From NCBI GenBank assembly GCA_021788365.1, contig JAJYKS010000006.1:1-62682 (forward strand): a stretch of DNA of 62,682 nt, read 5' to 3'. The notes below the pieces were generated by a model. The model saw only the letters and a program-made list of their open reading frames with translations. It was not told the origin of the DNA and ran no database searches. This DNA comes from a bacterium. GTDB lineage: Bacteria > Patescibacteriota > Microgenomatia > UBA1400 > UBA12108. Position 1 is the stretch's first letter; each line of letters begins with the position of its first letter. This document shows, piece after piece, positions 4,876 through 61,665 of the stretch. Both the position numbers and the translations under genes were made by a program.

Positions 4876-4905
4876 TTGACAGGAAACAGTAACACGTAGT
4901 ATCCT
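4876..4905 (+). promoter_or_regulatory. Promoter of the pheST leader
   Basis: TTGACA 4876-4881, 18 bp, TATCCT 4900-4905, 8 nt before the leader ATG. Confidence 0.6.
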
Positions 4906-4913
4906 CTCCCCAC

Positions 4914-4958
4914 ATGAGTCACAAAGAAAATTTATTTTTCTTTTTTACCACCAGCTAA
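4914..4958 (+). CDS. Phe-rich attenuator leader peptide MSHKENLFFFFTTS (pheM-like)
   Basis: 14-codon ORF with four consecutive Phe codons (4935-4946) upstream of pheST attenuator hairpins. Confidence 0.9.
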   Translation: MSHKENLFFFFTTS

Positions 4959-4959
4959 A

Positions 4960-5006
4960 CGCGGGGAGGTAAACGTGCCTACCACCCCGCGGGAGCGGGG
5001 TTTTTT
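4960..5006 (+). terminator. pheST attenuator: antiterminator/terminator pair
   Basis: Terminator ACCCCGC-ggga-GCGGGGT-TTTTT (4984-5006); antiterminator GCGGGGAGGTA (4961-71)/TACCACCCCGC (4980-90); 1:2 pairing TTTACC (4944-49)/GGTAAA (4968-73). Confidence 0.88.
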
Positions 5007-5034
5007 GTGAGCACAAGATGTTACAATGAAACCT

Positions 5035-6039
5035 ATGCAAAACAAGATTGATACAATTAAAAATACCTTCATCGCAGACCTGGTTGCAGCAGCAACGCTC
5101 GAAGCTCTAGAAGCGATCCGAATAAAGTACCTCGGCAAATCGAAAGGGGAGACAACGCTTCTCCTCAAGGAATTACAATCGCTCTCACTCGACGATAAAA
5201 AGCACTATGGCCCCCTCCTCAACCAACTAAAGCACTATCAAGAGTCAGAACTAGAAAATAAATATAAAATACTAAATAGCGAAATAAAAAATGAAACAGA
5301 CCTCACTATTCCCGGCACTCCCCGTCCAGTCGGCCACCTACACCCCACCTCAGTTGTCATCCGAGAAATGAACGAATTCTTCCGCTACCACGGTTTCTCC
5401 ATAGGAGAAGGGCCTGAAATTGAAAATGCTGACTACAATTTCCGACGCTTAAATTTGCCGGAAGGGCATCCTGCGACAGATCTCCAGGACACACTCTTTA
5501 TCAAAGAGCCAGATATACTGCTGCGCACACACACCTCATCGGTAGAAACGCGCATACTTTCGGCGTACCACGACAAGCTACCCCTACGAGTCGTAGTCCC
5601 CGGCAAGTGCTACCGCAACGAGACAGGCAATGCCACCAACAATAGCTTCTTCTACCAATATCAAGGATTCGTTGTAGACAAGGGGATCACCATCCAGCAT
5701 CTAAAAGACGTCCTCACCAAATTCCACCAATTCTTGTTCGGCAAAGATGTAGTGCTACGCTTCCGCTACAAATACTACCCCGAGGTTTCTCCCGGTATGG
5801 GCGTCGACATGCAGTGCCAATTCTGCAAAGGGGTGGGGTGCGGCGTGTGTAAATATCGCGGCTATATCGAGGTTTTGGGGAGCGGCATGATCCACTACAA
5901 CACGCTTCTAGCTTGTGGTATCGATCCTGACATCTACACCGGTTTCGCCTGGGGCATGGGTTTAGACCGCCTCGTCATGAGTAAATTCGGTATCACTGAT
6001 ATTAGGAAACTTTATAGCGGAGATATCGTCTACCTATGA
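5035..6039 (+). CDS. pheS: Phenylalanyl-tRNA synthetase alpha subunit
   Basis: GHLHP, HPATDLQDT, LLRTHTSS, PGKCYRN, GFAWGMGLDRL; start 5035 (5026 alternative). Confidence 0.99.
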   Translation: MQNKIDTIKNTFIADLVAAATLEALEAIRIKYLGKSKGETTLLLKELQSLSLDDKKHYGPLLNQLKHYQESELENKYKILNSEIKNETDLTIPGTPRPVGHLHPTSVVIREMNEFFRYHGFSIGEGPEIENADYNFRRLNLPEGHPATDLQDTLFIKEPDILLRTHTSSVETRILSAYHDKLPLRVVVPGKCYRNETGNATNNSFFYQYQGFVVDKGITIQHLKDVLTKFHQFLFGKDVVLRFRYKYYPEVSPGMGVDMQCQFCKGVGCGVCKYRGYIEVLGSGMIHYNTLLACGIDPDIYTGFAWGMGLDRLVMSKFGITDIRKLYSGDIVYL

Positions 6040-7883
6040 AAATACCTATTACCTGGCTCAAAGACTACGTCGAAACCGATAAGAAACCGGCAGAAATTGC
6101 AAAAGTGTTCACGAGCCTCGGTCTCATGCTCGACAAGCCCATTGATGGTGATGTGCTAGATCTCGAGCATCGCATGGACCGTGCCGACTGGCTGAGCGTA
6201 ATAGGCTGTGCCCGCGACTTTGCAGCCTTTGAGGGATTAAAACTGCACGAGCAAAAAGTGTACGGCAAGCCCGGAAAATCAGTTGTTGCCAAAAAGCGCA
6301 TTACCATTACGGGTAAAACTACTGCCGCACATCGCTTCAACACGCGCGTATTCCGTGGCGTAAAAATCGGACCATCACCAAAGTGGCTCGTCGACCGTCT
6401 TGAAGCATACGGCATGGAGAGCAAAAATAACATCGTAGACATAACGAACTACACAATGGTGGAATACGGACAGCCGCTCCATGCACAAGACATTGCCAAG
6501 CTGCCGGCTCCCGAGATCACCTTACGCAAGGCGACTAGTGGAGAGACGATTACTACACTCCTTGGCACAACCGTGGTGCTTGATAGAGAAACAGATATTC
6601 TCGCTTCAGGAGGGAAGCCAGTCGTAATTATGGGGATAGTCGGTGGCGCAGAAACCGGAGTTACAGAGACTACCGTCGATATCCTCCTCGACGCCGGCAA
6701 TTACGACGCTCGAGTTATCCGCAAAACCTCCCGCCGCCTACGCATTATGAATGAAACCGTATCCAGATGCGACAAATTCCTCGACCCCAGGCTTACCGAG
6801 GTAGCACTCGCTCGTGCAACCGAACTCATCCTCGAAATTGCAGGTGGTACGTACTATGAAAACGAAGACTGGTATCCACACCCGAAGTTGCCACAATCGG
6901 AAGTACTGCACTTCGCACGCCTGGCACAGCTCAGCGGTATGGACATACCAATAGCACAAGTGAAAAGAACTCTCCGGGCACTTGAATATCAGATTATAGA
7001 AGAGAGTGACGACGCGCTCACCGTTGAAGTACCATATTTCCGCACCGACATCGAGGTGGAAGACGACCTCGTCGCAGACATACTCCGTATCGGTGACTAC
7101 ACCAATATTCCCGCCACTCCACTTGCCTCGCCTGTGCCCGTGGATATTACTTCAGCGCTGTATCGCTTCGAAGACCGGCTCCGCGATGTTTGCGCTGCCA
7201 TGGGTTGCGACGAGCATATCACCGACCCCTTAGTCAAAGCTACCGGCAGGGTAGGGGAAATCCACCTAGCTAACTCGTTGTCCGAAGATCAAAACGCACT
7301 GCGCACCTCGCTCGTCCCTGGACTCGTCCATGTGCAAAATACCTACAAAAAACACGGTATAGCGACGCCAGTATTCGAGCTCGGCTCCGTCTACGATGGA
7401 ACAGCTTCCACCCAAAGCGAAACACGGCAACTTACCGTTGTTGGTAGCGATCCGTCCGGTTACCTTGCAACTATTCTCTCCGCACTCGGGATAAAAAATT
7501 ATTCTCTCTCTTCACATGAGGCAGATCCTGTCCTTGTCTTAGTAAACCTCAAATTAGTCGGTACCATCAGTACCTCCTCATTTACTCTCAATACAGCGGC
7601 ACTCATCGAACATGTCTCTCCCTACCAAAGTCTCAAAACGGAAATCGCTCATGTACCGTCACTAGATATTTCGTTAACGCTGCCTACAGGTACTCACTTT
7701 GAGAAAGCAGCTAAAATTCTCGCAAAGTCCGCACCGAAGCCATCGTCCATTGCAGTTATCGAGCGCTATGAGAACTCGCTCCTTGTTCGTCTCACATGGG
7801 ACAAACAAATCGACGCGGACAAAGTCCGACTTTCATTGGTAAAAGCGCTGGAAGCAGCTGGTATCGCCACTCGATCGAAATAG
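6036..7883 (+). CDS. pheT: Phenylalanyl-tRNA synthetase beta subunit (short, no B2 OB domain)
   Basis: MKIPITWLKDYV, DRADWLS, NNIVDITNY.M.EYGQPLHA.D, PYFRTDI. Confidence 0.97.
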   Translation: MKIPITWLKDYVETDKKPAEIAKVFTSLGLMLDKPIDGDVLDLEHRMDRADWLSVIGCARDFAAFEGLKLHEQKVYGKPGKSVVAKKRITITGKTTAAHRFNTRVFRGVKIGPSPKWLVDRLEAYGMESKNNIVDITNYTMVEYGQPLHAQDIAKLPAPEITLRKATSGETITTLLGTTVVLDRETDILASGGKPVVIMGIVGGAETGVTETTVDILLDAGNYDARVIRKTSRRLRIMNETVSRCDKFLDPRLTEVALARATELILEIAGGTYYENEDWYPHPKLPQSEVLHFARLAQLSGMDIPIAQVKRTLRALEYQIIEESDDALTVEVPYFRTDIEVEDDLVADILRIGDYTNIPATPLASPVPVDITSALYRFEDRLRDVCAAMGCDEHITDPLVKATGRVGEIHLANSLSEDQNALRTSLVPGLVHVQNTYKKHGIATPVFELGSVYDGTASTQSETRQLTVVGSDPSGYLATILSALGIKNYSLSSHEADPVLVLVNLKLVGTISTSSFTLNTAALIEHVSPYQSLKTEIAHVPSLDISLTLPTGTHFEKAAKILAKSAPKPSSIAVIERYENSLLVRLTWDKQIDADKVRLSLVKALEAAGIATRSK

Positions 7884-53388: not shown

Positions 53389-53593
53389 ATTCCCTATATT
53401 ACCACACCGAGTTCACCCGACAGCGAAGTCGTATTAAAAAATAAATAAGGCACACACGAGCAGAGCAATTTTCAGCGCGGAACGTCGAACTGGTCCCTCC
53501 AGTAAGCTGTGAGCACTGCAAAATTGTGTCGCGAGTATGTACAACAACAACAAAGTCTTTACGATTCCCCCCTCTTGCGCTACACTCGCTCTA

Positions 53594-54031
53594 ATGAAAG
53601 TCCGCAAAGAAGCCACTGTAGCAGTCATTATAGGTCTCGTATTGGGACTTATTGTCGTCGGCGGGGTTGTGCGAGCTCGCCAAGCATTACAACAAATGCA
53701 AAAAGAAAATAGTGAAGCCTCTTCAGTTGGCCAAAGTGGTCCTACCCCTTTGGGAGCACCATCCGGCCTCTTCCTCACGATAGAGACTCCCGACAACTCC
53801 GTGTCAAAAGACGCTGCGCTTACGGTAAGTGGAAAGACGCTCGCCGGTACATATGTTGCCATTACCGGTGAAAAGGGCGAATATCTTATAGTGCCAAACA
53901 GTCTTGGTTCATTTAGTCAGGACGTGACGCTCGCTGGAGGCGCCAACACCATTACGATAACCGTCTACCAGGCAGACGGCACTCACGTTGCCAAAACACT
54001 TAATGCGGTATACACAACCGCGGGGTTGTGA
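53594..54031 (+). CDS. Membrane-anchored Ig-like domain protein
   Basis: TM helix, then TVSGKT...FS.DVTL..GANTITIT; ATG 7 nt after TACACT. Confidence 0.75.
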   Translation: MKVRKEATVAVIIGLVLGLIVVGGVVRARQALQQMQKENSEASSVGQSGPTPLGAPSGLFLTIETPDNSVSKDAALTVSGKTLAGTYVAITGEKGEYLIVPNSLGSFSQDVTLAGGANTITITVYQADGTHVAKTLNAVYTTAGL

Positions 54032-54049
54032 TACAGTCTATCCCTGTCT

Positions 54050-54790
54050 ATGAAGAAAAAAGCACTATTTGCCGCCACTATTGCACTTACTGTTGTAATA
54101 CTGGCTCCGATTCCTGTCTCATTCGCAGCTTCCCCGACGCCTACACCCGATGCCACAGCAAGCAACAGCGCCACCATTAACGAAATTACCGATAACCTCA
54201 AACAACGTTTGCAAGAGACAATACAAAACGCCAGTAGCTCAGCAACGGCGACGGCTGTTGCCTACATTGGTTCGGTAAAGGATGTCGTAAACGACACAAT
54301 CGTCATGGACACCAAAGACGGCCGCAAGAACATCGCAGTTGGCAGCGATACCACAATCGTCCGTACCCCGGGACAACGCACAATAAAGATAGATAACGTC
54401 CAAATCGGCGACTCGGCGATCGCGATCGGCACACCAAGTGCAGAGGATGAGCTCGCCGGTACCCGAATTGTAGTGAGCACCGACCCCATCACCCCCCCTG
54501 CCAAAACCAGCGGCTATGGCACCATAACCAAAATAGCACGTGGCTCGTTGTCATTATTTGTTCCTGGCCAATCCGACCCTGTCGTAGTAGGAGTAGATGG
54601 GAACACGATTATAAAAACGCCATCAGATCTCCTTACTCTCAAAGACCTTGCGCTCGGCGATACCATCGTCTACACCGCCGATCTAGATAAAAATAACAAC
54701 CAGACAGCAACTATAATCATGCAAATCTCAACAGCTTCTCCCACTCCCTCCCCAGAGACCTCAGCCTCGCCTGCTGCCAAGAAAAAATAA
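54050..54790 (+). CDS. Secreted protein with repeated beta-rich (DUF5666-like) domains
   Basis: Signal peptide, PT linker, two G.V..V...T.I.......L.VGD.V-type units. Confidence 0.7.
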   Translation: MKKKALFAATIALTVVILAPIPVSFAASPTPTPDATASNSATINEITDNLKQRLQETIQNASSSATATAVAYIGSVKDVVNDTIVMDTKDGRKNIAVGSDTTIVRTPGQRTIKIDNVQIGDSAIAIGTPSAEDELAGTRIVVSTDPITPPAKTSGYGTITKIARGSLSLFVPGQSDPVVVGVDGNTIIKTPSDLLTLKDLALGDTIVYTADLDKNNNQTATIIMQISTASPTPSPETSASPAAKKK

Positions 54791-54793
54791 AAT

Positions 54794-54821
54794 TTGACAA
54801 GCCGTCACAATTTGCTATTAT
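54794..54821 (+). promoter_or_regulatory. Promoter of the hisS-operon leader
   Basis: TTGACA 54794-99, 16 bp, TGc-TATTAT 54816-21, 8 nt before ATG 54830. Confidence 0.7.
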
Positions 54822-54829
54822 CCACCTCA

Positions 54830-54919
54830 ATGAACACCTACACTCTAGCCACTGTAGCCCTGAGCTTGTCGAAGGGTCATAGCTCCCACACATTTGTGGC
54901 GGGAGCGCTTTTCGCGTAA
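54830..54919 (+). CDS. Candidate attenuator leader peptide (29 aa, His codons at 54878 and 54887)
   Basis: MNTYTLATVALSLSKGHSSHTFVAGALFA; its 3' part GTGGCGGG is complementary to the terminator 5' arm. Confidence 0.6.
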   Translation: MNTYTLATVALSLSKGHSSHTFVAGALFA

Positions 54920-54968
54920 AAAAGAAATAATTAGTTTCTTCCCATACCCCGCCACCAGGCGGGTTTTT
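54896..54968 (+). terminator. Attenuator-type antiterminator/terminator
   Basis: Terminator CCCGCC-acca-GGCGGG-TTTTT (54948-68); GTGGCGGG (54896-903) pairs perfectly with CCCGCCAC (54948-55). Confidence 0.8.
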
Positions 54969-54989
54969 CGTATTTATTAAAGGAAATAT

Positions 54990-55181
54990 ATGACATACGT
55001 TCCAGAGAAAAGACCAAATTGGGTCACTAATCCAAAAACTCCCCAGGAGTTAATTGATCAACAATACAATCAAAGCGTAGCACCAGATCAACGCTATTTT
55101 AAACCTCCCGAAACGGAGGAAGAGTCGGCAACGTATGTGGAACGCCTCGCTACCTGGCTCGCCAAATGGAGGGAGACATAA
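54990..55181 (+). CDS. Small hypothetical protein (63 aa)
   Basis: AAGGA SD; first ORF after the attenuator. Confidence 0.65.
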   Translation: MTYVPEKRPNWVTNPKTPQELIDQQYNQSVAPDQRYFKPPETEEESATYVERLATWLAKWRET

Positions 55182-55183
55182 AT

Positions 55184-56287
55184 ATGACCAATACCATCGA
55201 TCTCACTAAACAGCTCATCACCATCCCCTCTTGGGTTGGCCCAGGATGCGATGAAATCAAAGTCGGGCAGTTTATTCACGACTGGCTCAGACAAAATACC
55301 ACTCTCGCGGTCGTCAAACAGCTAGTTGTAAATGGCCGCTTTAACGTGATTGCCACTGGAGCAGGTTCTATTAAGACTCTCCTTGTAGGTCACATAGATA
55401 CTGTCGAAAATCGCGCTGGCTGGATCAGTAATCCATGGACGCCAGTCATCAAAAATGACCGGCTCTACGGCCTAGGCTCGACCGACATGAAGGGGTCATT
55501 AGCTGCCATGCTCACAGCTATCTCTGAAATTAAAAGTACTGATGGTCTCATGATTCTCTGCTACATCGACGAGGAGTACGACTTTGCCGGCATGCGCCAA
55601 TTTATCAAAGAGTATCGTGGCAAAATCGAACCCAAACAAATTATCTCCCTCGATGGTTCTGTGGACCAAATCGGGACCGGTTGCCGAGGCCTCATCGAGG
55701 TCAGCTTTCAGCTTCGCGGCCAGACTGGTCACGCAGGCCGCCCCGAAGCCGGGGTCAACGCCATCGTCAGCGGCCTCAACTGTGTAAATAAGCTCAAGCG
55801 ACAACTCGCGACTAAATATATGGATCCCAATCTCGGTATCACCACTCTCAATGTCGCCTACTGCCAGGGCGGGCTGGACAACGGTCAGGGAGGATACGGG
55901 AGACAGGGTAACAACATCGCTGACCTCGCCGAATTTGTGCTCGATATTCGGACGGCGTCTAACGTCCTCAACTCAGAGAAAATTCGTGAGCTACTTTTAT
56001 CATATGCTCGTGCAGCCAAGCTCAAGCTCGAGAACTGGTCCGTCCGCCACGACCTGGGGATGTGGTCAACTCCTGTAGAGTACCTGATTCCACTTTTTGG
56101 TAACGCTTACCGATACGAGTCCTCACTCGGTTATATCGATACTCAAATGTTGTGGGAGGCGTTTGGACAAATTCCTTGTGCCACCATCGGAGCAGGCAAC
56201 CTCGCCCTGGCCCACCAACCAAATGAATATGTAGAAACTGCTAATCTAGAAAAAACTAAGGAGCTTGTATGTCAAATCTTGAAATAG
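55184..56287 (+). CDS. M20 metallopeptidase, ArgE/DapE-like
   Basis: GHIDTV, YGLGSTDMKG, DEE, GHAG.PE.G.NAI, AHQPNEYV. Confidence 0.92.
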   Translation: MTNTIDLTKQLITIPSWVGPGCDEIKVGQFIHDWLRQNTTLAVVKQLVVNGRFNVIATGAGSIKTLLVGHIDTVENRAGWISNPWTPVIKNDRLYGLGSTDMKGSLAAMLTAISEIKSTDGLMILCYIDEEYDFAGMRQFIKEYRGKIEPKQIISLDGSVDQIGTGCRGLIEVSFQLRGQTGHAGRPEAGVNAIVSGLNCVNKLKRQLATKYMDPNLGITTLNVAYCQGGLDNGQGGYGRQGNNIADLAEFVLDIRTASNVLNSEKIRELLLSYARAAKLKLENWSVRHDLGMWSTPVEYLIPLFGNAYRYESSLGYIDTQMLWEAFGQIPCATIGAGNLALAHQPNEYVETANLEKTKELVCQILK

Positions 56288-56934
56288 AAGAACTTCGTGC
56301 TTCTACCGCCTCATTAGTCGCCCCCCTTTATGCAGCTTGTTTTGGTGAGGGAAGTACGCCAGCGGAAGGTTGGGGAGAACGCGCTGCCTGCTGGGAAACA
56401 GGATGTCTCGAGGATGGGAAACAAAAAATTATTCCGTACGTAGAAGTTGGCACGCCTTGCCCGCAATGTGCAACTCCCATGACCGAGGCCTACCCCCTTG
56501 AGTGGACATCCAGATATATCAAGAGCGAACTTTCATATCCGGGAACAATCGCACTCTTAGGATATATTGATCGTATAGTTGCTGCTGCCTGGGCGTATGA
56601 GGGTGAGATTGGCACAATCGCAACAAGAAAATATCCCAACAATCCATCTATGGCGGCCAAAGTGGTAGCCACCTACGGCAGAGTCTGGCCTAAGGAATCC
56701 AAAACGTTCTATATTTCCGAAGTATTTGTATCACCGGATAAGCGTGGCAATAATTATGCTCAAGAACTTATCAATAAAATGCTAAGCCAGGCGCGATACC
56801 CCGTGACTAGCCGCACACTCGACACGTCACCAATGACCACAGTCTTTACCAAAGCGGGATTAAAGAAAATCCTCAGTGCAGGCAGTGATCCCGAAAATAA
56901 TTTACGTGTTTTCTACGCTAGCCCAAGAAACTAA
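56269..56934 (+). CDS. GNAT-family N-acetyltransferase with a Cys-rich insert
   Basis: YISEVFVSPDKRGNNYA acetyl-CoA motif A; CWETGC...CPQC. Confidence 0.8.
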   Translation: MSNLEIEELRASTASLVAPLYAACFGEGSTPAEGWGERAACWETGCLEDGKQKIIPYVEVGTPCPQCATPMTEAYPLEWTSRYIKSELSYPGTIALLGYIDRIVAAAWAYEGEIGTIATRKYPNNPSMAAKVVATYGRVWPKESKTFYISEVFVSPDKRGNNYAQELINKMLSQARYPVTSRTLDTSPMTTVFTKAGLKKILSAGSDPENNLRVFYASPRN

Positions 56935-56946
56935 AAGGAGGATATA

Positions 56947-58194
56947 ATGAAACCCATGCAAAAACAAAATTTACAGACACTCAAAGGTTTTCGCGATTTT
57001 CTCCCCCAGGAAAAGCGCATCCGCGACGTGGTCTCGGAAAAGATTCGCCGTACATTCGAGCGCTACGGCTTCGAGCCGCTCGAGACCCCAACGCTCGAGT
57101 ACGCCGACCTGCTGCTCGGTAAATACGGCAACGAGGCCGACAAGCTCGTCTACCGCTTCACCGACCGAGGCGGGCGTGACATCGCCCTTCGCTACGACCA
57201 GACGGTCCCGACAGCCCGCGTCCTCGCCCAAAACCAAGATAAACTGGGGGTTGGCTTCCGCCGCTACCAAATCCAAAATGTCTTCCGCGCCGACAAGCCA
57301 CAGAGGGGCCGCTACCGCGAATTCACCCAGTGCGACGCCGATATTTTTGGCATCTCGTCTCCCCTCGCCGACGCCGAGATCTTGGCCGTCTACTACAATA
57401 TTTACAAAGATCTTGGCCTATCCGACATAAAAATTTATTTAAATGATCGGGAAACTCTAATTACAACGCTCTCTCCCTTTACCACCTCTACGGTCGATGT
57501 TTTCTCGCTAATCCAGTCTATAGACAAGTTAGACAAAATGGACAGAAATAACGTAGAAGCAGAACTTGTCGAAAAAGGAATTACAGCACGTAACGCAACC
57601 ATGGTGCTGAACTCCATACTCAGCGCAACTGCAAGTGCAAGTCTTCTCGAAATAACGGTTGCTGCAGAGTACTTAGGAATTCCAAAAGAAGTGGTTGTTT
57701 TTAGTCCCACGCTCGCCCGCGGCCTCGACTACTACACCGGCATGATTTTCGAGGGCAAGGTTCCGGGAGAGTCCGGCTCGGTCGGCGGTGGCGGCCGCTA
57801 CGATCGTCTCATCGAAAGCATTGGTGGCCCCGCAATCCCCGCTGTCGGCTTCGGCCTAGGTTTCGATCGCACAGTCGAAGTGCTGGTCGCAAAAGGTCTG
57901 GTCACACCGAGCGCGGCAACTCGCGCCCTGGTCACCATCTTTGCCCCAAACCTACAGGATAAAGCCTTGCAAGCTGCCCGTGCGCTCCGCGAAGCCGGCG
58001 TAAATACCGAGCTCTACCCAGATAGTTCTGCCAAGCTCGAGAAACAGCTCAAATACGCGGACAAAAAAGGCATCCCCTACGCCATTGTGATCGGCGAGGA
58101 CGAGGCCGGGAAAGGCGTCGTCACGGTGAAGAACCTCGCCACGCGACAACAGCAAACGGTTTCGCTTGACGAAGCGGCAAGTCTCCTGCAATAG
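56947..58194 (+). CDS. hisS: Histidyl-tRNA synthetase
   Basis: KGFRDF, LRYDQTVP, GRYREFTQCD, RGLDYYTG, GFGLGFDR, KQLKYADK. Confidence 0.99.
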   Translation: MKPMQKQNLQTLKGFRDFLPQEKRIRDVVSEKIRRTFERYGFEPLETPTLEYADLLLGKYGNEADKLVYRFTDRGGRDIALRYDQTVPTARVLAQNQDKLGVGFRRYQIQNVFRADKPQRGRYREFTQCDADIFGISSPLADAEILAVYYNIYKDLGLSDIKIYLNDRETLITTLSPFTTSTVDVFSLIQSIDKLDKMDRNNVEAELVEKGITARNATMVLNSILSATASASLLEITVAAEYLGIPKEVVVFSPTLARGLDYYTGMIFEGKVPGESGSVGGGGRYDRLIESIGGPAIPAVGFGLGFDRTVEVLVAKGLVTPSAATRALVTIFAPNLQDKALQAARALREAGVNTELYPDSSAKLEKQLKYADKKGIPYAIVIGEDEAGKGVVTVKNLATRQQQTVSLDEAASLLQ

Positions 58195-58201
58195 TAAAAG
58201 G

Positions 58202-59125
58202 ATGTCTCGCTCCCGCCGCTTGGCCTATCTCGCCCTCGTGGTAAACGCAGTGATCTGGGGTGCCGCGTTCCCCATAATCAAGCCGTCACTTTCGTTTATC
58301 TCGCCGCTCCAGTATCTCTACCTTCGTTATCTGGTAGCGAGTATCTTCGGCATCCCTATCGTTGTCTATTTTTATATCAAAAGTAGACCAAAGATATCTT
58401 ATATCATCAAAGTATTACTTATAGAATCTATCCAACTCATCTCACTTCCCCTGCTCTACATCGGGCTCGCGAGAACAAGCGCGCTTGACGCCTCGCTTAT
58501 TGGAGCCACAGGACCAGTGTTTGTTGTCCTCGGTGGTTTTATCTTTCTCCATGAACACGAGCGTAAACGCGAGTGGCAGGGCATGGTTATCTCACTTTTA
58601 GGGTCAATTGCCCTTGTTGTAGGTCCACTCCTAGATGGCCATGGTTTTGACCCGGGATCCTTCTCTGGCAACACGGCAATCATTGCCTATAACGTACTCT
58701 ATACAGTCTACGCCCTGACCGCCAAACACTTTTACAAACAGCGCCCACCGCTATATCTTGGCTCGATAATTTATCTGTTGGCGTCCGTCATGTACGGCTC
58801 TTGGCTGTACATAGGTGGAACGCTACCCCCACTCACACTGCTTATGGCAAACCGTGAGGTAGCACTTGCTGTCTTCTACATGGGACTTCTCGGGTCACTC
58901 CTCGCCTTCGCGCTCTACTTGTATGGTCAAAGCAAAATAGAAGTATCGGAGGCAAACCTCTTTACATACCTAAACGGCGTCGTAGCAATACCCGCAGCTT
59001 TTCTTATTCTCGGCGAGCGCCCCACCTGGTACATGCTTGCGGCTATCGTTGTTGTGGCCTACGGGGTCTGGCGTGCAGAGACTCGCTCCCGCCGCACTTC
59101 TCGAAAAGCCAAAGTGCTGCTATAA
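58202..59125 (+). CDS. DMT/EamA-family transporter
   Basis: [10 protein letters not shown], 10 TM helices in two repeats, ILGER. Confidence 0.92.
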
Positions 59126-59133
59126 TTCTCCCC

Positions 59134-59418
59134 ATGAAAGCCAACATCCATCCAAAATATCAGACTGTTACAATAACCTGCAGTTGCGGCGCCAGTTTTA
59201 CGACCGGCAGTACCAAGGGTGATTTTCCAGTCGATATCTGCAGTAAATGCCACCCATTCTTCACCGGTGAGCAGCGCTTTGTCGACACGCTCGGCCGTGT
59301 TGAGCGTTTCAAGGCCAAACAAACCAGTGCTACAGGCAAAAAAGCTAAAAAAGACCGCAAAACCGCGCAGTCTGGTCCTCGCACACTTTCCGACATTCGC
59401 GCCGCGCAAGGCAAATAG
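59134..59418 (+). CDS. rpmE: 50S ribosomal protein L31
   Basis: [29 protein letters not shown]. Confidence 0.98.
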
Positions 59419-59433
59419 ATTTATACTATTCCT

Positions 59434-60453
59434 ATGGATTACGCCTCGCTCGTATCAGAGTACGACCATCTTGTCGCCGAATCTGCCGATCCGACAAATG
59501 CCGCTCGGCTCGGCGAGATCGGCGAAGCCATCAGTGAACTGGAACCAAAGGTTGGTATTGCTCGAGAACTCGTCTCCCTTGATACTCAAATCGCCGATTC
59601 GACAAGTTTGGCGAATGATCCCGAATTAGGCAAATTAGCCAAGGACGAAGTCGTAGAACTCAAAGAAATACGTGAAGCCAAGCTCGCCGCGCTCCAGGCG
59701 CTCGAATCGAGCCCGGACACCGCCGAAGACAAGCGCCCCGCGATAGTGGAGTTCCGCCCTGGTGCAGGCGGTGAAGAAGCAAAAATCTGGGTAAATGATC
59801 TCTTTCGCATGTATACTCGCTTTGCCGACCTCGTCGGTCTCAAATACGAAACATTGGACGAGGGCACCTACCTCTTCAGCGGTCGCCCCAACGACCCCAC
59901 ACTGCCCCAAGGCGCCTATGGCCTCCTTAAGTGGGAGTCCGGCGTCCACCGGGTGCAGCGCGTGCCGGAGACCGAAGCACAGGGGCGTATCCACACTTCA
60001 ACTGCCAGTGTTGCCGTGCTACCAAAGGTAGACCCGCAGAAGATTACCGTTCGCGACGAAGATTTGGAGTGGCAGTTCTTTCGTGCAGGGGGACACGGTG
60101 GCCAAAACGTGAACAAGGTTAGTACAGCCGTACGTCTCATCCACAAGCCAACCGGCATCACCGTCGTCTCTACCCAAGAGCGATACCAAGAGCGCAATCG
60201 CCAGATCTGTCTGGACTACCTCCGCGCCCAGTTGTGGGAACGGCAGGAAGAGGAGCGGCTCGCCAAACAGAAGAATACCCGCCGCGCGGCGGTTGGCCGC
60301 GGGATGCGTGCGGAAAAGATCAGGACCTACAACTACCCCCAAAATCGCGTCACCGATCATCGGATCGGTGTATCTTGGCACAATCTCGAAGCAATCCTCG
60401 AGGGCAGTCTCACCGAGCTCCTGAAAACCGTCCACATGGAAATGAATAAATAA
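59434..60453 (+). CDS. prfA: Peptide chain release factor 1
   Basis: [14 protein letters not shown] (PxT), [21 protein letters not shown]. Confidence 0.97.
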
Positions 60454-60474
60454 AACTAATTACCAAACTCGAAA

Positions 60475-61665
60475 TTACTGAGACTGCGGCTCGGCCTTGA
60501 GAGTTACGGTCAAAGGTATCGTTCCCCCATTGCGGTAGACCGTCACCGCCACCTTGTCCCCTATCTTTTTAGTGAGGAGGAGCTGTGCCAAGCCGCCAGA
60601 TGATTCAGCAACATTCTTTCCGTCAAACGTTGTCACAATATCGCCTTGTTGCACCCCAGCATCGGCGGCAGAGCTACCGGGGACCACAGAGACTACATAG
60701 GCACCAGCCGGCACATTGTTGAGGAGTGCTACATCCTTCGAGATGGATTTATACTGTACCCCAAGGAAGGCACGATCAAACTTACCGGTTGTATTAAAGG
60801 TGTTTAAGGTATCTTTTACCACGTTTATGGGGAGTGCAAAGCCTATGTTCTGCCCTGCCTGTGACACCGCTACGTTCACCCCCACAACTTGTCCCACCGA
60901 GTTTAGAAGTGGTCCTCCAGAATTACCAGGGTTTATGGCTGCGTCAGTCTGAATCACATTGGAGAGTTGCTCCGACATACCGCCCATTGCGTCCCCTGCC
61001 GTTATCCCACGCCCCAAGCCAGATACGACGCCGGTAGTTACCGTATCGCGGAACTCGCCGAGTGCGGTCCCAATGGCGATCACAAACTGTCCCACTTGCA
61101 GGTTATTAGAGTCGCCCATGGCGACAACCGGCAGATTGCTTGCATCTATCTTGAGGATGGCCAGATCGTTTACGGGATCTCGCCAGATTTGCTGCACGGT
61201 ATATGTCTTATTGTCTTTGGTGACTACCTTATACTGGCTGGGACTGCCGGTCGCGACAACGTGTTTGTTGGTCACAATAAGTCCGTCGGCGGCGACTATA
61301 AAACCACTGCCTATGTCTACCGTTTGGGGCGTAGTGTTCTGGCTGCCCTGCTGACCACCAGGAACAGAAAACACGCCAAAGGGATCAAGGAAAAAGGGAG
61401 CTAGGTTTTGCTGTGGCTGCTGTGTCATAGACACGGTAACGACGGCAGGAGATACGTTTTTAGCAACATCGATGACTACGGACTCTTCGGTAAGAACTTT
61501 TTGTTGCAATGCCTGCCCAGTACTTGCTGTCTGCTTTGGTAACACTTTGTCGAGAAACGGCAATGTCCATACTCGGTCGGATACCGCTCCCGACACGAAC
61601 ACTACCATCACAAACACACCCGAGAGTACGCCGATTAAAAATGTCGAAAAACCCGTGCGTTTCAT
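60475..61665 (-). CDS. HtrA/DegP-family serine protease with PDZ
   Basis: GSGFI, TNKHVV, DLAIL, QTDAAINPGNSGGPL. Confidence 0.96.
   Translation of the reverse strand: MKRTGFSTFLIGVLSGVFVMVVFVSGAVSDRVWTLPFLDKVLPKQTASTGQALQQKVLTEESVVIDVAKNVSPAVVTVSMTQQPQQNLAPFFLDPFGVFSVPGGQQGSQNTTPQTVDIGSGFIVAADGLIVTNKHVVATGSPSQYKVVTKDNKTYTVQQIWRDPVNDLAILKIDASNLPVVAMGDSNNLQVGQFVIAIGTALGEFRDTVTTGVVSGLGRGITAGDAMGGMSEQLSNVIQTDAAINPGNSGGPLLNSVGQVVGVNVAVSQAGQNIGFALPINVVKDTLNTFNTTGKFDRAFLGVQYKSISKDVALLNNVPAGAYVVSVVPGSSAADAGVQQGDIVTTFDGKNVAESSGGLAQLLLTKKIGDKVAVTVYRNGGTIPLTVTLKAEPQSQ

Follow-up and report, generated by a model that had tools for sequence, protein, structure and literature searches.

A putative leader-peptide attenuator with histidine codons precedes the hisS operon of a Microgenomatia bacterium and recurs in its relatives

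The window analyzed here is a stretch of 62,682 nucleotides (nt) of a bacterium of the phylum Patescibacteriota, class Microgenomatia (GenBank assembly GCA_021788365.1, contig JAJYKS010000006.1, positions 1 to 62,682 of the forward strand), whose genome, labeled G000 below, comprises 1.09 Mb in 26 contigs. Upstream of hisS, the gene for histidine--tRNA ligase, lies a leader composed of a promoter, a 29-codon upstream open reading frame (uORF) and an intrinsic terminator. Judged from its sequence and from its counterparts in relatives, this leader is very likely a ribosome-mediated (leader-peptide) transcription attenuator, in which the charging level of tRNA-His would set read-through into the operon p63-M20-GNAT-hisS-eamA-rpmE-prfA. 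A stalled ribosome is the most likely histidine sensor, since the same device recurs across relatives. The functional type is already known from hisL and pheM; what sets this leader apart is its lineage, its class-wide spread, a matching phenylalanine leader in the same window and the puzzle posed by hutH, which follows the leader in some relatives.

The promoter, the 29-residue uORF, an antiterminator pairing of eight out of eight bases and a terminator hairpin followed by five U residues had all been proposed in an initial annotation of the window, and all were borne out when the sequence was re-examined (coordinates in Table 1). The promoter matches the consensus at 11 of 12 positions and was the top promoter-like site in a 7-kb scan of positions 53500 to 60600; the terminator, with a stem of 6 bp, all GC, was the sole plus-strand terminator-like site in that region. 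The ATG of the uORF sits 8 nt past the -10 box. Because this spacing is too short for a ribosome-binding site, the uORF is probably leaderless. Within the uORF, segment 2 has two possible partners. Its sequence GTGGCGGG (54896-54903; RNA GUGGCGGG) pairs with CCCGCCAC (54948-54955), the 5' side of the terminator, and it can also pair with segment 1. The latter pairing stood in reduced form: GCTCCC/GGGAGC and CCAC/GTGG had been described as both complete, but they share C54886-87 and are mutually exclusive in full, and the helix as folded consists of CUCCC/GGGAG plus CAC/GUG (54883-54891 with 54896-54905). Similarly, of the two His codons that had been placed in segment 1, His20 lies within it and His17 lies 2 nt upstream. 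The fold of the whole leader has a z score of -2.6 relative to shuffled sequences. Taken from a single genome this case is weak, and it is the comparative data from relatives that raise the leader above chance.

A DNA search of 60 relatives found matches to the last 118 nt of the leader, 77 to 91% identical, in five further genera of the family, while the M20 protein encoded in the operon is only 53 to 71% identical. All 11 relatives that were fetched have the leader, then zero to five variable genes, and then hisS-eamA-rpmE-prfA. A first covariance model, built from leaders of the family, found divergent copies in two further family members, with the motif HHTH, as well as copies in families f3, f4, f8, f13 and f14 of the order, and a second model found about nine further leaders in other orders of the class. 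Inspection directly upstream of hisS added leaders in G015 and G020 and a second leader in G257, with HHHHTHAH (G-numbers denote genomes, C contigs, and L leader or covariance-model loci). The gene hisS is downstream of the leader in all cases with sufficient contig, except G257:C13, and immediately downstream in G043, G027 and G257:C7. In the tabulated set, 28 orthologous leaders represent six families of the order; beyond these, two more were found in the family, besides the nine or so in other orders. Covariance-model matches L059, L081, L083-85, L101, L105, probably L114, L119 and L120 were discarded as plain terminators behind coding genes.

Comparison of leaders in relatives, the check that the initial annotation had put forward, came out in its favor, as a block of His codons is present in 28 of 28. 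Histidine accounts for 81 of their 701 codons (11.6%), versus 2.1% in the proteome, and every tabulated leader has at least two His codons within five codons, for which the chance expectation is 3.4% per random 24-codon open reading frame. The pooled P for His enrichment is about 1e-34, a value that overstates independence because the 28 leaders are related. The blocks are of the types HH, HHH, HHHH, HHxxH and HHHxH, and both CAT and CAC are used. Their position is constrained: the first His lies 13 to 22 nt and the last 6 to 15 nt 5' of the G-rich segment 2, and the block starts at codon 10 to 12 in insertion-free leaders and at codon 15 in G001. The uORF itself is kept in all 28 leaders, at 17 to 37 codons, with an N-terminal part that diverges beyond alignment; among family leaders without an insertion, the usual form has 24 codons and ends in L/I-H-H-x-x-H-T-x-V-A-G-x-x-x-A/G-stop. 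A -10-like box is found 5 to 10 nt before the uORF ATG in 26 of the leaders, and a terminator 21 to 51 nt past the uORF stop in all of them. Segment 2 lies inside the uORF, ending 2 to 15 nt before the stop, in 27 leaders and straddles the stop in that of G156; its duplex with the 5' arm of the terminator has a predicted energy of -13 to -22 kcal/mol in 28 of 28. That all 28 leaders hold a His block in the same place relative to the antiterminator strand, with hisS downstream wherever the contig sufficed (G257:C13 apart), supports the earlier proposal that the leader senses His-tRNA.

The reading frame of the uORF has been kept through insertions of palindromic repeats. In G000, a hairpin resembling a repetitive extragenic palindromic (REP) element lies in frame within the uORF, where relatives without the insert carry CAT CAT. 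This repeat belongs to a dispersed hairpin family with the core CCTGAGCTTGTCGAAGG, which is present in 11 to 19 copies in G000, has covarying stem ends and has matches across the order; other copies in G000 include those at C1:75725, C2:104956 and C20:22171 (minus strand). Palindromic repeats lie in the uORF just 5' of the His block in four independent lineages, G000, G011/G016, G007 and G064. Relative to the insertion-free form, the uORF is longer by 15 nt in G000, 39 nt in G011/G016, 36 nt in G007 and 21 nt in G064, all multiples of 3; four in-frame insertions would be expected by chance about 1 time in 81. Such in-frame insertions would be a rare instance in which selection on the reading frame of a leader peptide is directly visible. 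The G000 leader has only two His codons because the in-frame repeat replaced the first His. An alternative account, with a hidden His-rich frame and a 19-nt insertion, was not adopted: the repeat stem includes the flanking G and T and thus amounts to 21 nt in frame, the current ATG frame starts with MNT like the Met4 frame of G017, and the N-terminal parts of the relatives' uORFs are without His. The uORF of the G020 Phe leader likewise has a palindrome in frame, immediately 5' of its regulatory codons.

The terminator-state structure is also supported by base pairing across relatives. In this structure, 90% of cells were paired in an alignment of 12 leaders, versus about 40% when the partners were slid, and 86.5% in an alignment of all 28 leaders (A2), versus at most 56%, where A2 had been fitted to the structural model and its pair counts therefore lean towards the structure. 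Helix 1:2 forms standard pairs in 84 to 90% of cells, with double-sided changes in the model-fitted alignment A2. In the terminator, a single pair covaries among the 12 sequences and three pairs among the 28.

In the proposed mechanism, transcription would start no more than 2 nt from the AUG at 54830, and this 5'-terminal AUG would be where a ribosome loads. With ample His-tRNA, the ribosome would reach the stop codon at 54917 and mask segment 2; the 3:4 terminator would form, and transcription would end near 54968. If no ribosome were engaged, segments 1 and 2 would pair, and the terminator would form likewise. With scarce His-tRNA, the ribosome would stall at the His block (codon 17 in G000; codons 11 to 12 in insertion-free relatives), which would melt segment 1 and free segment 2 to pair with segment 3 on its emergence, so that no terminator would form and RNA polymerase would enter the operon. 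Pausing would perhaps occur at 1:2, Pa or Pb, the last two being hairpins between segments 2 and 3. In a histidine auxotroph, the output would be more histidyl-tRNA synthetase (HisRS), and possibly more histidine-scavenging hydrolases and transporter, rather than biosynthetic enzymes. Folding was carried out with the ribosome modeled as a simple footprint mask. When the ribosome had its A site at His17 and masked the RNA to 54891, the minimum free energy structure of the full-length leader (-25.6 kcal/mol) was the 2:3 antiterminator, with Pa and Pb enclosed, and no terminator was present. The terminator folded when the mask was placed at either His20 or the stop codon, and also when no ribosome was present and 1:2 formed. 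On the basis of these folds, scarce His-tRNA should therefore give read-through.

Several observations weigh against this interpretation. In the footprint model, antitermination results from a stall at His17 only and not at His20; since one His codon only is in a productive position, the G000 copy may be weakened and its switch less sensitive than those of the relatives. The pairs of 2:3 are nearly invariant, so the antiterminator has little support from covariation, and the leaning of the model-fitted alignment belongs here as well. Two His codons among 29 are not significant alone (P = 0.12 at the 2.1% His background of the proteome). That two are few compared with the seven of enterobacterial hisL had been conceded in the initial annotation; the caveat holds for G000 by itself and is accounted for by its relatives, as insertion-free leaders have HHxxH or more. 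No leader was found by a strict scan of the 3.7 to 5 kb upstream of hisS in four members of the family (G005, G006, G010 and G012), which may reflect a limit of sensitivity. The operon members rpmE and prfA have no obvious link with histidine. Finally, in six relatives hutH, the gene for histidine ammonia-lyase, would be part of a starvation-induced operon and its product would destroy histidine, which is paradoxical.

We considered three other explanations for the leader. An attenuator that senses general translation capacity, that is, ribosome availability or coupling, with a translated uORF whose His codons are not the sensor, is very improbable. It would fit rpmE (L31) and prfA (RF1) as conserved members of the operon, the presence of only one or two effective His codons in G000, and the existence of similar uORF-terminator leaders without an evident enriched amino acid, for example in G008:C5, G193 and G126. 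Such a sensor would not account for a His block whose spacing to segment 2 is constant in all 28 leaders while other codons drift, for Phe codons at the equivalent position in leaders of pheST, or for hisS and hutH as the conserved cargo.

A ligand- or protein-binding RNA switch, in which Pa, Pb and a UUCCC box would be the sensor and the open reading frame incidental, is very improbable. Within the family, Pa and Pb covary, and the AAUUAG of the Pb loop and the UUCCC directly 3' of Pb (54939-43) are invariant, a degree of conservation that would be needless in a plain spacer; in addition, a palindrome resembling TTAACnnGTTAA occurs near the promoter in many relatives. Outside the family, however, the Pa/Pb region is AT-rich and unconserved, and it is the uORF, the His block and segment 2 that are conserved. 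The open reading frame, its start position relative to the -10 box and, through four insertions, its frame have all been kept. A search of positions 53500 to 56500 with Rfam cmscan (E <= 10) gave no match to a T-box (RF00230), to His_leader (RF00514) or to a riboswitch; the best match at the leader was Trp_leader, which scored 19 bits (gathering score 41; E = 1.7), a resemblance driven by the terminator. That the product itself is functional, as a trans-acting small RNA (sRNA) of about 140 nt or as a His-containing peptide of 29 residues that is near hisS by coincidence, is extremely improbable: a strong promoter and a strong terminator do bound a discrete short transcript, and sRNAs derived from attenuators as well as active leader peptides have precedents, for example rnTrpL/peTrpL of Sinorhizobium (PMC7968998 and PMC7298713), but conservation of the peptide is limited to the part that overlaps RNA pairing, its N terminus varies and tolerates insertions of 5 to 13 codons, the linkage to hisS is kept across orders, and such a function would supplement attenuation rather than replace it.

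Table 1. Features of the candidate His attenuator, of the operon behind it and of the pheST genes in the window
Feature	Position	Strand	Remarks
Sigma-70-type promoter	54794..54821	+	-35 TTGACA 54794-54799; 16-nt spacer with extended TGn 54813-15; -10 TATTAT 54816-54821
Leader-peptide uORF	54830..54919	+	ATG 54830; 29 codons; TAA 54917-54919; product MNTYTLATVALSLSKGHSSHTFVAGALFA
REP-like hairpin in frame within uORF	54857..54877	+	GCCCU-GAGCUUGUCGA-AGGGU; encodes ALSLSKG; replaces first His of ancestral HHxxH
His codon 17, CAT	54878..54880	+	A-site stall here leaves segment 2 free (mask folding)
Segment 1	54882..54891	+	5' strand of anti-antiterminator (GCUCCC..CAC)
His codon 20, CAC	54887..54889	+	Inside segment 1; CAY in all family members
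Segment 2	54896..54906	+	GUGGCGGGAGC; partner is segment 1 or terminator 5' arm; within uORF, 13 nt before stop
Hairpin Pa	54905..54917	+	CGC-UUUUC-GCG; 3' end is U of stop codon; compensatory changes in 3/4 pairs (CG<->UA, GC<->CG)
Hairpin Pb	54924..54938	+	GAAAU-AAUUA-GUUUC; compensatory changes in 3/5 pairs; loop AAUUAG family-conserved
Intrinsic terminator	54948..54968	+	Segment 3 CCCGCC(AC), loop ACCA, segment 4 GGCGGG (to 54963), T5 54964-54968
First operon gene (p63)	54990..55181	+	63-residue protein without family match; homologues in G008 and G013 only
M20 metallo-hydrolase	55166..56287	+	ArgE/DapE family; below equivalog cut-offs
GNAT gene	56269..56934	+	221-residue protein; weak GNAT match
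hisS	56947..58194	+	Histidine--tRNA ligase; TIGR00442 394 bits vs cut-off 287; single copy in genome
EamA transporter (eamA)	58166..59125	+	
rpmE	59134..59418	+	
prfA	59434..60453	+	
pheS	5026..6039		Directly downstream of Phe leader
pheT	6036..7883		Follows pheS

As stated in the initial annotation, hisS is the fourth gene downstream of the leader. The seven plus-strand genes of the operon overlap or are at most 20 nt apart, and the portion from the leader to hisS overlaps or has gaps of at most 12 nt. The promoter scan found no plus-strand promoter-like site of at least 9/12 between the leader and hisS; a separate hisS-specific promoter may exist despite this. An assignment of the M20 protein as an Xaa-His dipeptidase was rejected: it matches the generic ArgE/DapE subfamily only, and since these matches fall under the equivalog cut-offs, no claim is made for its substrate. 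In relatives, the genes between leader and hisS vary and include M20, GNAT, AstE/AspA-like, M29-like and M15 proteins, an FAD oxidase, nucleoside hydrolases, an HAD-PRTase and a pyridoxal phosphate (PLP) enzyme. Some of these could free histidine from conjugates; others look unrelated. On the other side of the leader, a gene for a 246-residue protein without family match (54050-54790, plus strand) ends 4 nt before the -35 box and was found by tblastn to be a conserved upstream neighbor of the leader in several families (G008, G013, G018, G043, G065, G064, G027 and G379). There is no terminator between this gene and the leader promoter, so that some transcripts may read through from upstream and carry the uORF in non-leaderless form.

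The genes of histidine metabolism in these genomes narrow what the leader could control. Across the family, hisA/F are absent from 24 of 24 genomes and hisD from 23 of 24; because the family is without hisA/F and has hisD in one genome only, the attenuator cannot regulate biosynthesis. In six genomes, the first gene after the leader is an orphan hutH, co-oriented with hisS: L031 (G017), L037 (G003), L092 (G174), L096 (G164), L104 (G248) and L109 (G645). These genomes represent three families and at least two orders, and the hutH equivalog cut-off was exceeded in three of the three that were tested. In G017, hutH overlaps the next gene, whose stop is 13 nt before hisS. Urocanase was found in none of the six, and histidine biosynthesis in none of the four family or order genomes with leader and hisS that were checked. 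The hutH cargo ties the leader more firmly to histidine, while the regulatory logic or the role of the enzyme is puzzling. It is possible, if unlikely as a whole, that leaderless leader-peptide attenuation is a class-wide means by which Microgenomates, members of the Candidate Phyla Radiation (CPR) with few regulators and no amino acid synthesis, tune at least hisS and pheST to scavenged supply, and that the orphan hutH cargo means either a non-classical polarity or logic of the attenuator or a salvage function of HutH, such as urocanate amination or action on a histidine derivative.

The window contains a second leader of the same design, which serves as a control of specificity. A promoter (TTGACA-18-TATCCT, from 4876), a leaderless uORF from an ATG at 4914 to a TAA at 4958 and a terminator (CCCCGC-GGGA-GCGGGG-T6) make up a leader spanning 4876-5008; its peptide, MSHKENLFFFFTTS, contains FFFF, and its antiterminator would be CGCGGGG/CCCCGCG. 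The genes behind it are pheS and pheT (Table 1). Leaders with Phe codons were also found, as covariance-model matches, before pheST in G020 and before pheS in G169. Since the Phe leaders precede pheS(T), the codons just ahead of segment 2 specify the amino acid of the synthetase encoded downstream. A strict genome-wide scan of G000 for a promoter, a leaderless short open reading frame and a terminator, which was not a census, returned three loci, of which two are the His and Phe leaders. The third, on C20 (C20:39984-40160), has a short open reading frame, MLPKIVCNPRGWPCKDL, with no evident enriched amino acid, and lies upstream of a gene for a 187-residue, probably secreted protein.

The His leader resembles the hisL/his attenuator of Escherichia coli and Salmonella in having a leader open reading frame with His codons, alternative pairings 1:2, 2:3 and 3:4, an intrinsic terminator and an expected read-through when His-tRNA is scarce. 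It differs from hisL in several respects. The G000 leader has no similarity to it in sequence or by covariance model; in place of seven His codons in a row the leaders described here have two to five, or up to seven to eight in G257; the uORF is apparently leaderless and without a Shine-Dalgarno sequence; the stop codon is downstream of segment 2, which is separated from segment 3 by two additional conserved hairpins; and the target is hisS in a histidine auxotroph, not a set of biosynthetic genes. Control of an aminoacyl-tRNA synthetase operon by a leader peptide is known from pheM-pheST of E. coli, where a leader peptide enriched in the cognate amino acid attenuates the synthetase operon. 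The FFFF leader before pheST in the window is a direct analogue, while the His leader concerns another amino acid, in another lineage and without sequence relationship. Leaderless short regulatory open reading frames occur in Actinobacteria, for which a survey of leader-peptide attenuators reportedly exists (PMC1262725); as in these, the uORF described here would stand at the 5' end of the transcript with no ribosome-binding site, a likeness drawn from spacing, in a different phylum and with different targets.

In Firmicutes, hisS T-boxes (RF00230) sense uncharged tRNA-His and raise hisS transcription through a choice between terminator and antiterminator, as is proposed here. Unlike a T-box, the leader has no specifier loop or T-box sequence, and the proposed sensing is through the ribosome rather than by direct binding of tRNA. 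T-box-like elements were found in 19 of 24 family genomes, below the Rfam gathering score and with E-values down to 1e-21, for example at G011:C11:33612-33919 and G021:C3:17375-17656, and weakly in G000 at C12:21333-21411 and C20:96027-96148. The family-wide search gave none at hisS and none on C23 near 54.8 kb, and a T-box as the regulator of hisS was rejected. Given these elements, the same organisms appear to use T-boxes and leader peptides for different genes. A His leader peptide has been predicted by comparative analysis upstream of a hisS paralogue and of hisZ in Bacillus (Naville & Gautheret 2010, PMC2965389). Compared by description only, that case shares a short open reading frame with His codons and a premature terminator before a gene of the hisS family; it differs in that it is found in Firmicutes, where the paralogue and hisZ are tied to histidine biosynthesis, while here the sole housekeeping hisS is preceded by the leader in a genome without the histidine pathway.

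Literature searches listed no publication that deals with attenuators or leader peptides of Patescibacteria. The CPR/Patescibacteria have minimal genomes with few recognizable regulators, and their gene control is almost uncharted. A conserved cis-regulator of the kind proposed would mean that auxotrophs monitor tRNA charging through the ribosome and respond by raising a synthetase, perhaps together with a transporter and enzymes for scavenging, rather than biosynthesis. Its leaders are unannotated genes of 17 to 37 codons that annotation pipelines overlook, and they could serve as a natural read-out of the amino acids that are limiting in uncultured organisms.

Further observations concern individual leaders and their promoters. 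G257 has two His leaders: L124 on C7, with the peptide MALTNRFNHHHHTHAHAEVV..., lies about 100 nt upstream of hisS, and L095 (C13:47-147), with the peptide MLINRNTNSVTHHYHATSGVI, precedes genes for a 306-residue protein of unknown family, an SLOG-cluster4 protein and others, and hisS does not occur within 8.5 kb. Similarly built leaders that lack a His block precede other genes at L058 (G008:C5:1705-1799), L102 (G194), L106 (G193), L107 (G126) and L082 (G140); in these covariance-model matches, a short open reading frame ends just past a G-rich segment complementary to the terminator. A palindrome, TTAAC-nn-GTTAA (also GTTACCATGGTAAC), not seen in the window, lies beside or inside the leader promoter in many relatives, for example L074 (G065), L075 (G175), L086 (G025), L088 (G160) and L108 (G653), and may be an operator for a DNA-binding protein or a common promoter-associated motif.

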